From sequence record PP582757.1: a stretch of 64,000 nt of DNA; one strand, 5' to 3'. Made by a program: the position numbers and the translations under genes. The notes under the pieces were generated by a model that did not search any database, was not told the DNA's origin, and was given only the letters and a program-made list of their open reading frames with translations. This document shows, piece by piece, positions 41,240-57,983 of this stretch. This DNA is from Klebsiella phage vB_KM5a1-KLB31. Each line of letters opens with the position of its first letter. Positions within the stretch are counted from its first letter, which is position 1.

Positions 41240-42235
41240 TTAAATAGCCTTTTGATTAATATAAGACAGAAGCTCTTCAGTATGTTCCCAACCAATACAG
41301 GCATCTGTAATAGAAACACCATAGAGCATATTATCAGAAATCTTTTGATTTCCTTCATGTAGATTAGATTCTATCATAATACCTTTGACAAAGGCGTTAT
41401 CTGCTACCAATCTGCCAACATGAAGTTGATTTGAGAAATAACCGGTCGCATTAGCATGACTACAGTCAACCATAACGTTATGATTAAGACTTTGAGCTGA
41501 AGCAGCAACTACGGCTTCATTAATATCGGACTCTGAATAATTAGGTCCTTCACTACCACCACGCAATACGATATGGGTATTAACATTGCCTTCGGCATGA
41601 ACGATACCTACTTTACCATCATGGTCCATACCCATATAACGATGCGGATACGCCGCAGAAAGAATTGCATCAGTAGCAACCTTAACAGAACCATTTGTTC
41701 CATTTTTAAAGCCAACGCACATAGGCAGGCCTGAAGCAATTTCACGGTGAGTCTGGCTCTCGGTTGTACGAGCACCGATTGCGACCCAAGAGAAAATACC
41801 TGTAAGATACTTAATCGTGAATGGGTCTAACACTTCAGTCGCTAGTGGCAGGCCTAAGCTTAATAGTTCTAAGCAAAGTTCACGAGCCATTTCGAGCCCA
41901 CGGTTTATGTCAAATGAGCCATTCAATTCTGGGTCATTAATGAAACCTTTCCAACCTACAGTTGTTCTTGGTTTCTCAAAATAAACACGCATAACCAAAA
42001 GAAGATTTGGAAATTGTTTTTGTACTTCGGCTAAACGTTCACCGTATTCGAGAGCAGCTTTAGGGTCATGAATTGAACAAGGGCCTACAACAATAATTTT
42101 GCGTGGGTCTTCGCCATTCATAATCGAATTTACTTGTTCACGATGAGCAGCAACTTGTTTTTCAAGTGCCACCGTCAAAGGATATGTTTCAACCAATGTT
42201 TTTGGAGAAATTAGTGATTCGACTAATGGTAGCAT
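41240..42235 (-). CDS. 3-deoxy-D-arabino-heptulosonate-7-phosphate (DAHP) synthase, class I alpha (AroG/AroF/AroH-like)
   Basis: 331 aa. IIVVGPCSIHDP, MRVYFEKPRTTVGWKGFINDP, IGARTTESQTHREIASGL, GFKNGTNGS and VSITDACIGWE are near-identical to the E. coli AroG core motifs. Confidence 0.85.
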   Translation of the reverse strand: MLPLVESLISPKTLVETYPLTVALEKQVAAHREQVNSIMNGEDPRKIIVVGPCSIHDPKAALEYGERLAEVQKQFPNLLLVMRVYFEKPRTTVGWKGFINDPELNGSFDINRGLEMARELCLELLSLGLPLATEVLDPFTIKYLTGIFSWVAIGARTTESQTHREIASGLPMCVGFKNGTNGSVKVATDAILSAAYPHRYMGMDHDGKVGIVHAEGNVNTHIVLRGGSEGPNYSESDINEAVVAASAQSLNHNVMVDCSHANATGYFSNQLHVGRLVADNAFVKGIMIESNLHEGNQKISDNMLYGVSITDACIGWEHTEELLSYINQKAI

Positions 42236-55550: not shown

Positions 55551-55784
55551 TAAGGCTTCTTTAAATTTTTCAAGAGAAACCGTATCGCTTGGTACCAGAT
55601 ACACATTGTTAGTCATCCGGCCATCCAACCCGAAGACCTGCACACAGAGGTCGTAATAGTTGTCTTCAACCAAAGACATCATTTTAGGCTGATGGACCAT
55701 ATCAAACAATTGGACAACATTTGTACCAGCCCATTTGTTTGAATTTCCGTCATAACCGTAATCTTCAACTAAGATGTAAATCAT
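55542..55784 (-). CDS. Hypothetical small protein
   Basis: 80 aa ORF in the frd-32 cluster. Confidence 0.35.
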   Translation of the reverse strand: MIYILVEDYGYDGNSNKWAGTNVVQLFDMVHQPKMMSLVEDNYYDLCVQVFGLDGRMTNNVYLVPSDTVSLEKFKEALKR

Positions 55785-55999
55785 GCCATCTCCAGAATTT
55801 CGTTGATGTAAAAAGGGCGAACTTTAGAATTCAGATAGAATTCATCAATGAAGTCGATCAGATTATCAGAAGGACCAGTGATAGTTGCTAACTTAGCATA
55901 GGCTTCACCTACCATTTTCACTTCTAGCTTAACGTTGTACTGAGAAGCAACTTCTTCCGCACGAGCTACATTGTTCACTACGATTTCTAAAGTTTTCAT
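55781..55999 (-). CDS. Hypothetical small protein
   Basis: 72 aa ORF. GGAGAAC Shine-Dalgarno. Confidence 0.4.
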   Translation of the reverse strand: MKTLEIVVNNVARAEEVASQYNVKLEVKMVGEAYAKLATITGPSDNLIDFIDEFYLNSKVRPFYINEILEMA

Positions 56000-56434: not shown

Positions 56435-56677
56435 TCAGTTGCACAGAGCTACAATTTTAGCTTCAAGAGTTTTCATATTTTCGCGATGCAAGTCACGAGT
56501 CTTACCTACGCCTTCTGGATAAGTTCCATCATAAGTGGAATTCTCATTTCCAGTGGCCAGAATTACGAGATGCCACATCATAGATTCCATGAAAGCGTAA
56601 TCTTTTAAAAGAACGCCTTTTTCAATAGCTTTACCACGTTTGGCACGAAGTTTAGACAATTCGTGTGAGCTATGCAT
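56435..56677 (-). CDS. Hypothetical small protein
   Basis: Start at the internal ATG (MHSSHELSKLRAK), adjacent to the upstream stop. Confidence 0.35.
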   Translation of the reverse strand: MHSSHELSKLRAKRGKAIEKGVLLKDYAFMESMMWHLVILATGNENSTYDGTYPEGVGKTRDLHRENMKTLEAKIVALCN

Positions 56678-56678
56678 A

Positions 56679-56900
56679 TTAAGCCTCGATGCTTTCAAGA
56701 GTTTCAGCTTTCATTTCAGGGTCCATACCGACCATGTACTCAGCACGAAGATAATCTTCGATAGTGCAGATGTCACCTTCGATTGTGACCTGAGAATCAA
56801 TCCAACCATGTTCACAAGCAACTTCTTTCAGTTTGTAACGCTCAAGGCAGGTTTCGTTGAAGTATTCATAATCACATACGCTTAAAGTAATACGAGCCAT
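56679..56900 (-). CDS. Hypothetical small protein (first gene after the promoter at 56915-56960)
   Basis: 73 aa from MARITLS. CUGGAGAUACAAAA-AUG Shine-Dalgarno. Confidence 0.4.
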   Translation of the reverse strand: MARITLSVCDYEYFNETCLERYKLKEVACEHGWIDSQVTIEGDICTIEDYLRAEYMVGMDPEMKAETLESIEA

Positions 56901-56914
56901 TTTTGTATCTCCAG

Positions 56915-56960
56915 TTTGTTGGTGTAGGAGCATAATAACCTGTTTTAAAGTCGTTGTAAA
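56915..56960 (-). promoter_or_regulatory. Early promoter (GTTTAC-N17-TATTAT) plus conserved CTCCTACACCAACA leader
   Basis: rc: GTTTACAacgactttaaaacaggtTATTATgctcctacaccaacaaactGGAGA. Confidence 0.5.
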
Positions 56961-56980
56961 CACCTTTGTGCAAAACCCCC

Positions 56981-57045
56981 TAATGGCACATATAAGTTAC
57001 ATTATCCGCAAAAAGTGGGCTTAATGTAACTTATATGTGCCATTA
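56981..57045. repeat. Perfect 24-bp inverted repeat with a 17-nt spacer (taatggcacatataagttacatta ... taatgtaacttatatgtgccatta)
   Basis: The right arm is the exact reverse complement of the left arm. Located between the gene 32 terminator and the next early promoter. Confidence 0.8.
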
Positions 57046-57074
57046 ACAAAAATGGGAACCACTAGGGTTCCCAT
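57046..57074 (-). terminator. Gene 32 terminator; identical copy of the 38872-38900 terminator
   Basis: acaaaaatgggaaccactagggttcccat lies 7 nt after the gene 32 stop. On the minus strand it reads as hairpin plus UUUUUGU. Confidence 0.65.
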
Positions 57075-57080
57075 TCATTA

Positions 57081-57983
57081 TTACAGACCAGCTAACAGGT
57101 CATCCAGACCATCGTCGTCACCACCAGCTTTTACACCGGTATCTTCAACATCTGGAGTGCTTGGTTTGGAGCTAGTGAACTCGGCCATTTCTTTATCGAA
57201 ACCGTCCAGTTCTGCACCCATTGCATCAGCTTTAGAAGCCGCTACAGAAGCAGCACCACCAAGAGCGGCCGTACCCATTACCTGAGCAAATTTCTTCTGG
57301 TTATCTTCCAGAGATTTGAACTTAGCCAGTTCCTGCAGGTCACCCATGTCTTCCATCAGTTTCTTCTGAACTGCTTCGTCATCGATACCTGGGATTTCTG
57401 ACTGATTCAGGAATTTGGAGTCGTCGTAGTTTTTGAAGCCACCGACCATTTTGCATTTCAGTGCGAAGTTAGCACCTTCATAGACACAAGTCACGTCAAC
57501 TGGAGTTTCACCAATCTCAGTATCAACTTCAACCATCTGGTTAATTTTGTCCATGATTTTCTGACCGAAACGATATTTGAATACTTTACCTTCATTAGCA
57601 GGAACAGCAGGGTCTTTAACAACCAGGATGTTAGCCCAGAAAGAAGTTTTACGTTTCAGCAAACGGTATTCTGCTTCATTGGTGTTGAATGAATCATGCT
57701 TGTTCAGGTGAGCACACACTGGGCAAGATTCGAAATCACCGTGAGTAGAAGTACAGTTTTCAATATACCATTTACCATTTTTCTTGAAGCCGTGGTTAAC
57801 CAGTTTCAGGAATGGAGACGGGTTTGCTTCGTTTTTAGAAGGCAGGAAGCGAATCACAGCACTACCAACACCGTCGGTATCTTTCAGTTTCCACTCGTTC
57901 TTATCATCATCATAAGAACCTTTACCACCTTTCATTGCGGACAGTTGAGCCTGAAGTTCTGCTGGGTTTTTGCGCTTAAACAT
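57081..57983 (-). CDS. 32: Single-stranded DNA-binding protein gp32
   Basis: 300 aa. [50 protein letters not shown], and acidic C-terminus DDLLAGL match T4 gp32. Confidence 0.95.

Follow-up and report, generated by a model that had tools for sequence, protein, structure and literature searches.

An operator-like pair of dyads in an inverted repeat behind gene 32 of T4-like phages, with a spacer that appears to flip by template switching

Results

A perfect inverted repeat between gene 32 and frd.3

The DNA analysed here (the window) comprises 64,000 nt of Klebsiella phage vB_KM5a1-KLB31 (PP582757.1) and is 98.4% identical in DNA to Edwardsiella phage PEi20, a Kanagawavirus of the Tevenvirinae. 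The element of interest is an inverted repeat with two 24-bp arms that lies behind gene 32: reading along the minus strand, gene 32 is followed by its terminator, 4 nt further on by the repeat, and then, after 20 nt, by an early promoter and frd.3. A sequence-only reading of the window had described perfect 24-bp arms that are 17 nt apart and have the gene 32 terminator on one side and an early promoter on the other, and this description is borne out in full, the coordinates being read on the minus strand. The features of the locus are as follows.

57081-57983, minus strand: coding sequence (CDS) of gene 32 (single-stranded DNA-binding protein), an open reading frame (ORF) of 300 aa, annotated as gene 32 in PEi20 and with a Pfam gp32 match on the identical protein
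57043-57076, minus strand: gene 32 intrinsic terminator, a stem-loop (57076-57050) followed by a T-rich tail that reaches the first bases of the repeat
57022-57045, 24 bp: inverted-repeat arm nearer gene 32, the exact reverse complement of the other arm
57026-57041, 16 bp: near-dyad box in the gene 32-side arm, plus strand GTAAC-TTATAT-GTGCC
57005-57021, 17 bp: spacer between the arms, plus strand TCCGCAAAAAGTGGGCT
56985-57000, 16 bp: near-dyad box in the promoter-side arm, plus strand GGCAC-ATATAA-GTTAC
56981-57004, 24 bp: inverted-repeat arm nearer the promoter, plus strand TAATGGCACATATAAGTTACATTA
56932-56961, minus strand: T4-early-type sigma-70 promoter G-TTTACA-17-TATTAT, 20 bp downstream of the repeat, 10/12 consensus match
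56679-56900, minus strand: frd.3 homologue (Pfam Phage_FRD3, E = 1e-18), the first gene behind the early promoter

The arms (56981-57004 and 57022-57045) are 100% complementary over 24 nt and lie 17 nt apart; by chance, 64 kb would contain about 2e-8 inverted repeats with perfect 24-nt arms and at most 80 nt between them. A census of the window found this to be its sole long perfect inverted repeat, the runners-up being only 75-86% complementary, so the arm length is indeed unmatched there, as the sequence-only reading had held. No further copy of the 24-mer occurs in the window at up to three mismatches, and matches were seen in 0 of 100 shuffles. The arms have a G+C content of 25%, and both strands fold into a hairpin far better than shuffled sequences do (RNA z = -8.3; DNA z = -9.6 and -9.9), with a predicted RNA stability of -53.8 kcal/mol when the terminator is included.

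The flanking signals are of a familiar kind. According to the terminator scan, the gene 32 terminator has 11 pairs, 5 of them G-C, a loop of 5 and the tail TTGTTAATGG; its stem covaries across genera (GGGAACC/GGTTCCC versus GGGAGAC/GTCTCCC), and T4 has an equivalent hairpin. The GTTTAC and -10 elements of the promoter are conserved in all relatives, and T4 has the same terminator-promoter arrangement.

Several identities for the repeat were considered and rejected. It is no intrinsic terminator, being AT-rich and having no T-run behind it (minus strand, GGGGGTTTTG; plus strand, ACAAAAATG), and the terminator scan of the region reported the gene 32 hairpin only. Nor is it a mobile palindrome of the REP or MITE kind, since there is one copy per genome and the flanks TTTTTGT and GGGGGTT are not duplicated; a reading as a protelomerase target was likewise rejected. 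Rfam 15, searched at E values up to 10, returned no family match (microRNA-precursor look-alikes scored 15-22 bits against gathering scores of 54-90), and reading by eye in the window and its relatives revealed no conserved match to the late promoter TATAAATA or to a MotA box inside the arms.

Each arm also contains AAC-N6-GTGC (57028-57040 and 56986-56998), the two copies being in inverted orientation. This motif, which we take to be the EcoKI type I restriction site, is kept in Winklervirus and lost in the Enterobacter-host Kanagawaviruses (GTTC), and its presence is probably a coincidence.

The module is shared by three genera and is optional

The repeat occupies the same position in 16 phages in GenBank (9 Kanagawaviruses and 7 Winklerviruses); four Logan assemblies and contigs of IMG/VR and metagenome origin carry it as well. 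Every Kanagawavirus or Winklervirus locus examined carries it, with the exception of one Winkler-like contig, and most Karamvirus have a homologous module, recognizable by its two boxes, at the corresponding position. Across these three genera, gene 32 DNA is only ~75-80% identical. The module is a non-coding, optional stretch of 57-65 bp that follows the gene 32 terminator and precedes the next early promoter: in T4, SP18, Morganella phage MP1, Salmonella phage STML-198 and Citrobacter phage CkP1 the terminator leads directly to the promoter, over 20 gene 32 loci besides that of T4 have no repeat, and in an unbiased set of 30 gene 32 loci the module was present in 5 (four Kanagawa, one Winkler). 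One contig with a Winkler-like terminator (L074) has no module, and another (L075) retains a single box. Pattern scans of IMG/VR and a scan of one metagenome detected no lineage with the module outside Kanagawa-, Winkler- and Karamvirus; single-arm matches inside coding DNA in the pattern scans were discarded as chance. Its presence at the same locus in related phages and its absence from T4 and others show that the repeat is neither the accident of a single strain, as the sequence-only reading had allowed it might be, nor a general feature of T4-like phages.

The junction itself varies among relatives. Erwinia phage Gravdalen (L011) is identical to Vettismorki and X20 (L010/L012) through terminator, repeat and promoter, and has another leader and another first gene right after the -10, which is a gene swap of the type known for promoter-early stem-loop (PeSL) cassettes. 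Four Logan loci (L092, L094-L096) have a gene 32 protein and a repeat identical to those of the window, and a promoter spacer and -10 of the Enterobacter type (ACGCTTTCAAAACAGGTTACTATACTCC, versus ACGACTTTAAAACAGGTTATTATGCTCC at 56962-56925 of the window); the mismatched promoter beside an identical repeat points to a recombination breakpoint just downstream of the module. On the other side, the minus strand of Serratia phage LC53 (L013) has a tandem duplication of ~77 nt comprising the 3' end of gene 32 and the first half of the terminator stem, which leaves a partial second gene 32 tail ahead of the intact terminator, between the gene 32 stop and the repeat. Small hypothetical CDSs are annotated across the module in some GenBank entries (L008, 562-660(+); L010, 316-678(-); L035 and L036, 280-444(-)), and are probably spurious gene calls.

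Two boxes with fixed half-sites and spacing outlast the hairpin

Each arm contains one 16-bp box, with a consensus of G(G/T)(C/A)AC-N6-GTTAC and its mirror and a dyad symmetry of 5-7 out of 8 pairs. The half-site facing the spacer (GTTAC/GTAAC) is invariant in 19 variants from three genera. The search pattern permitted 20-30 nt between boxes, and all 19 distinct variants have 25 nt, or 41 bp from box to box; this amounts to about four helical turns and would place both boxes on one face of the helix. The sequence between the boxes is unrelated between Karamvirus and Kanagawavirus, and the distance from box to GTTTAC ranges from 12 to 24 nt.

In Karamvirus the boxes take the form GTAAC-N6-GTTAC, in which the N6 is often direct and not mirrored. 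By hand count, the promoter-side box of CC31 matches the promoter-side arm of Kos305 at 21 of 24 positions, and the gene 32-side box of COW86c matches the gene 32-side arm of Kos305 at 19 of 22. PG7 has GTAAC-TTTTAC-GTTAC where contig L042, with flanks 96-97% identical, has GTAAC-GTAAAA-GTTAC, indicating that the N6 is free in orientation while the half-sites are fixed.

Conservation of the boxes does not depend on the fold. For Kanagawavirus, Winklervirus and L042 the prediction of a long hairpin is strong (z = -7.7 to -11), for CC31 it is weak (z = -3.5), and for PG7, myPSH1140, Pet-CM3-4, COW86c and RZH, which keep the half-sites and their spacing, there is none (z = -1.4 to -2.3); altogether ~30 Karamvirus genomes are without the long hairpin and yet have the boxes at 41 bp. 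Among seven Enterobacter-host Kanagawaviruses, 0 of 32 box positions vary, compared to 9 of 17 promoter-spacer positions and several positions of the terminator loop. The boxes are also solitary: GTAAC-N6-GTTAC with at most one mismatch has no second copy in the 64-kb window, and a 20-nt version of the box occurs once in each of the whole genomes of PEi20, CC31 and CIP9.

A group of AT-rich viral contigs in IMG/VR (L039-L041, L043, L044, L046-L048, L050, L053, L054, L056 and L058) carries a perfect palindrome of the half-site, TGTAAC-TTATAT-GTTACA, just downstream of TAGTTTACAAAA, and has the look of an operator. The contigs are unrelated to these phages, and we set the group aside as relatives of the phage boxes, the likeness being a probable coincidence.

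The spacer has flipped at least twice and the arms change in pairs

The spacer of the window is the reverse complement of that of PEi20 at 17 of 17 positions, with its length unchanged. Between 56700 and 57400 the two phages differ by 11 mismatches, all of which lie in 57005-57021 and are removed by reverse-complementing these 17 nt; PEi26 has the flipped spacer with one additional substitution. The flanking DNA defines two clades, one with the window, PEi20 and the SRR15674967 type (20-61 differences per 1200 nt), and one with PEi26 and SRR24146891 (48 differences per 1200 nt), with ~150 differences between clades. Both orientations occur inside each clade, PEi20 being opposed to the window and SRR15674967, and PEi26 to SRR24146891. 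Because all outgroups have the orientation of the window, at least two independent flips must have taken place. On the transcribed strand, a flip replaces the U5 of the loop by A5, and nothing points to selection against this; the length of the T5 run in the spacer is constant, unlike that of the nearby T and G runs, and a small stem within the spacer is poorly conserved.

The two arms have also changed together. In a set of 17 distinct sequences, 17 of 24 arm pairs are invariant, 4 have changed on both sides and none on one side only, and unpaired positions are confined to near the stem ends. The paired changes are from C:G to A:T (Enterobacter group), from A:T to T:A (Winklervirus) and from A:T to G:C (IME523). 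No G-U intermediates were seen, and the two clean paired changes are transversions, for which a G-U intermediate is not possible, and which bear the signature described for template-switch mutation. Template switching predicts homogenised arms, compensatory jumps and loop inversion (Monttinen and Loytynoja, 2022, PMC8794818; a yeast study, PMC8604942).

A recombinase or invertase gene was found neither among the annotated nor among the scanned neighbours of the repeat. A segment of 17 bp is too short for a synapsing recombinase, and its length and the lack of such a gene nearby make fold-back template switching, or a double exchange between arms, the economical mechanism.

Other features of the region

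A second early promoter and leader cassette lies at 56055-55995 on the minus strand (GTTTACAACG..AAACAGGTTATTATGCT.CTACACCAACA..TGGAGA; promoter 56055-56027), precedes a 72-aa ORF (55781-55999) and has no repeat upstream. Between frd.3 and frd.2, an 80-aa ORF (56435-56677, minus strand) corresponds to PEi20 ORF-263, matches no Pfam family, and is present in Edwardsiella-type phages and absent from Entb_45 and other Enterobacter-host Kanagawaviruses. Elsewhere in the window, a 331-aa DAHP synthase gene (41240-42235, minus strand; Pfam DAHP_synth_1, E = 9e-78) separates the homologues of cd and cd.2 and has the same annotation in PEi20; a gene of the aromatic-amino-acid pathway is unusual for a T4-like phage. 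Lastly, the Logan assembly SRR24146891 (L094, 820-1488) has an additional 222-aa ORF between genes 59 and 32 that has no Pfam match and occupies the position of the homing endonuclease segG in T4 and SP18.

Discussion

A putative pair of protein-binding sites

The best placed of the readings that we considered, which we hold tentatively, is that the module consists of two putative protein-binding boxes in duplex DNA, and that the perfect repeat and the flips are products of fold-back template switching. The two-box part is preferred because half-sites are fixed, the AT-rich centre is free in orientation and the spacing is about four turns, none of which a single-stranded hairpin would require. 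The boxes would be recognition sites for a symmetric, probably dimeric, sequence-specific DNA-binding protein, which is the least certain step; two dimers on one helix face might then act at the junction, as a barrier to read-through out of gene 32 or as a modulator of the early promoter of frd.3. One arm would repeatedly be copied from the other, by fold-back template switching as the DNA replicates or by an equivalent exchange between arms, and such copying would yield exact complementarity, paired mutations and, occasionally, an inversion of the segment between arms. The long hairpin would accordingly be a by-product of homogenisation and not the functional form. We infer the mechanism behind the perfect arms and the flips from patterns in the sequences, and a double exchange between the arms of two genome copies, in a T4-type DNA pool that is rich in recombination, would give a product identical to that of a polymerase strand switch.

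A number of observations weigh against this interpretation. No DNA-binding Pfam domain was detected in the 8 neighbours from frd.3 to frd.1 or in 10 unnamed ORFs of the region, and a single pair of boxes per genome implies that no global regulator uses it as its operator. The pair is found upstream of the -35 with a gap that varies between 13 and 25 bp, which is unusual for a repressor site. In Kanagawavirus and Winklervirus, exact complementarity over 16-24 bp, kept across three paired changes, takes in the half-site facing away from the spacer and the N6, and complementarity of these asymmetric parts is what direct selection for a hairpin would likewise predict. Only about five independent lineages carry the module, so that the statistics on spacing and conservation are thin, and its absence from the close relatives CkP1, L074 and L088 indicates that any function it has is dispensable. 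A site for a dimeric regulator had been among the candidate roles in the sequence-only reading, and comparison with relatives favours it, given near-dyad boxes and a fixed 41-bp spacing that outlast the hairpin; the search of the 18 ORFs for Pfam domains offered no binder to go with it.

As for candidate proteins, the boxes bear only a loose resemblance to what we take to be the TyrR box (TGTAAA-N6-TTTACA) and to sites of the GntR and PadR types. DsbA is encoded 2 kb upstream and is reported to bind the A/T-rich DNA of late promoters weakly (PMC2988020), but T4 has DsbA without having the module, and we do not favour it as the binder. A more specific proposal, which we regard as distinctly doubtful, is that the module is the only recognition site per genome of a new sequence-specific DNA-binding protein that is encoded by the phages or by their enterobacterial hosts and is common to the three genera. 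Were this so, the module would serve a cis-acting function that T4 lacks, for example as a roadblock or insulator at the gene 32 boundary or as a replication or partition-type site; its perfect-repeat form would be a fast flip-flop, and every lysate would be a mixture of both spacer orientations.

Alternative explanations

The serious rival, though on balance unlikely, is that the functional form is a single-stranded hairpin, whether in read-through RNA or in DNA of the lagging-strand template; as RNA, the 24-bp duplex could be an RNase III-type processing site, a block to 3' exonucleases or an insulator between gene 32 and the operon of frd.3. The predicted stability is very high (-53.8 kcal/mol for RNA with the terminator, z = -8.3; DNA z of about -9.7), the boxes have been kept exactly complementary in all Kanagawavirus and Winklervirus genomes by paired changes, with mismatches only at stem ends, every lineage can pair GTTACRTTA with TWWNGTAAC into a short stem next to the spacer, and tolerance of flips suits a requirement for structure alone. 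However, a good intrinsic terminator ends 4 nt before the element, so that little RNA should include it, and the ~30 Karamvirus genomes have lost the long hairpin while retaining the boxes and the 41-bp spacing. The lack of G-U intermediates, with clean paired changes that are transversions, also speaks against a selected RNA stem, as do the poorly conserved spacer stem, the change of the loop from U5 to A5 without sign of counter-selection, the lack of an Rfam family and the missing T-run, which rules out a terminator. A role in RNA processing or stability, proposed in the sequence-only reading, is possible, and is weakened by the preceding terminator and by the missing hairpin in most Karamvirus.

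That the module is instead a neutral palindrome at a terminator-promoter junction, kept perfect and flipped by template switching alone and conserved through recent ancestry and horizontal spread of the cassette, strikes us as improbable. Template switching by itself can create and maintain perfect stems (PMC8794818), such junctions are known for cassette exchange (PMC4122927), of which Gravdalen offers an instance, and the module is optional, being absent in T4, SP18, MP1, STML-198 and CkP1, present in 5 of 30 gene 32 loci, missing from L074 and reduced to one box in L075. But homogenisation within genomes does not stop divergence between lineages, and yet 0 of 32 box positions vary as against ~25-50% at neighbouring neutral positions. 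Half-sites and the exact 41-bp spacing are held across three genera despite the divergence of their gene 32 DNA, and the T5 run of the spacer has kept its length where the runs beside it have not.

We consider it very unlikely that the repeat acts on the DNA level as an origin-associated unwinding element or cruciform, or as a hotspot for junction-resolving enzymes that promotes exchange of modules where the gene 32 core meets the variable frd region. Arms with 25% G+C, one site per genome and a location at a core/variable boundary with gene swaps are in keeping with such a role, and the spacer flips show that the arms interact. An unpaired centre of 17-25 nt, on the other hand, disfavours cruciform extrusion from duplex DNA, no MotA-box middle promoter (TGCTT-like motif) could be read in the module, most T4-like genera are without the element, and the breakpoints of gene swaps fall after the promoter and not within the repeat. 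The notion of a recombination hotspot thus survives in the narrow sense that the arms drive flips of their spacer, and not beyond. The proposed connection to the T4 origin oriG fails, because the interval from gene 32 to frd.3 in T4, where oriG was defined, consists of terminator and early promoter only; oriG presumably lies more than 3 kb away on the T4 map, near gene 34.

Hardly credible, finally, is a programmed invertible switch in which spacer orientation sets the direction of a small internal promoter: the sequence GTTACA-18-GATAAT at 57030-57001(-) spans the arm-spacer junction, matches the consensus at 9 of 12 positions with a -10 that exists in one orientation only, and points towards frd.3 in the window and antisense into gene 32 in PEi20 and PEi26, and both orientations occur among near-identical phages after two or more flips, but promoter matches of this quality are at chance level (10 found, 8.0 expected in shuffles), GATAAA in the Enterobacter group and GCTTAT in Winklervirus stand in place of the -10, and neither the length of the segment nor the neighbouring genes suit an invertase, so that we rejected this promoter as a chance match that is not conserved.

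Significance

Although T4-like phages are among the best-studied viruses, their intergenic DNA is largely unannotated past promoters and terminators, and the module is a strongly constrained, single-copy, non-coding element beside one of the most heavily expressed replication genes. It also provides a clean natural case of a repeat that is kept perfect while its spacer is flipped, with two flips between phages whose flanks differ by 2-4% and a third within a box of another genus, so that it lends itself to measurements of template switching in a phage replisome. Moreover, a single flip appears as 11 clustered substitutions and would mislead phylogenies or typing by single-nucleotide polymorphisms.

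Comparison with known systems

The mutational behaviour of the repeat and its setting in a PeSL cassette are of known kinds, and the element itself appears to be undescribed: the papers searched, including the work on PEi20 and PEi26, contain no description of it, and a search for the half-site gave nothing relevant.

Template-switch mutations at quasipalindromes were reportedly studied in T4 by Ripley. What the repeat shares with such mutations (PMC8794818; the yeast study, PMC8604942) is an exact reverse-complement spacer, clustered differences explained by one event, perfect arms, and two-sided changes without wobble. It differs in that the events recur in a conserved non-coding phage cassette, as two flips of a 17-bp spacer and a flip of the N6 in Karamvirus; their dependence on replication is an assumption here.

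PeSL cassettes of T4-type phages consist of a terminator stem-loop and an early promoter (Arbiol 2010, PMC2839356; Comeau 2014, PMC4122927). The flanks of the module conform to this, with a terminator at 57076-57050 and a promoter at 56960-56932, at the edge of a variable region; the promoter and leader recur elsewhere, and the junction is a site of gene swaps. The module, by contrast, is an extra insert between terminator and promoter that is not itself a terminator, most PeSL junctions behind gene 32 are without it, and whereas PeSL motifs come in many copies, the repeat and the box are single-copy both in the window and in whole genomes.

Paired operators for dimeric proteins, such as those of phage repressors and looping regulators, resemble the module, in which a pair of near-palindromic sites of 16 bp, about four turns apart, has conserved half-sites of 5 bp around a free AT-rich centre, and, as in operators, the boxes are conserved independently of folding (Karamvirus z of -1.4 to -2.3). 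Here, however, neither site overlaps a promoter hexamer, each genome has a single pair, mirror symmetry between the two sites is exact in two genera and extends well past the half-sites, and the cognate protein is putative.

Chloroplast intergenic hairpins undergo small loop inversions, and their stems are transcribed and stabilise the 3' ends of mRNA. In both systems, recurrent and homoplasious flips among close relatives affect a short loop that lies between inverted-repeat arms behind a gene; in these phages, however, a terminator precedes the element. The Hin, Gin, Cin and FimBE switches likewise have inverted repeats around a segment that is seen in both orientations, but their segments measure hundreds of bp as against 17 bp here, where there is no recombinase gene nearby and no conserved promoter or coding sequence on the segment. 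The RNase III hairpins of the T7 early genes lie inside a polycistronic RNA and have internal loops. Like them, the repeat is a long intergenic hairpin of at least two helical turns between transcription units; unlike them, it is a perfect duplex after a terminator, with a stem of at least 20 bp in Kanagawavirus and Winklervirus and a hairpin that is not conserved in Karamvirus.

Since the element departs in a defining feature from each of PeSL stem-loop, terminator, inverton, origin and mobile palindrome, we file it under none of these and class it as an operator-like paired dyad and as an inverted repeat that apparently flips by template switching.

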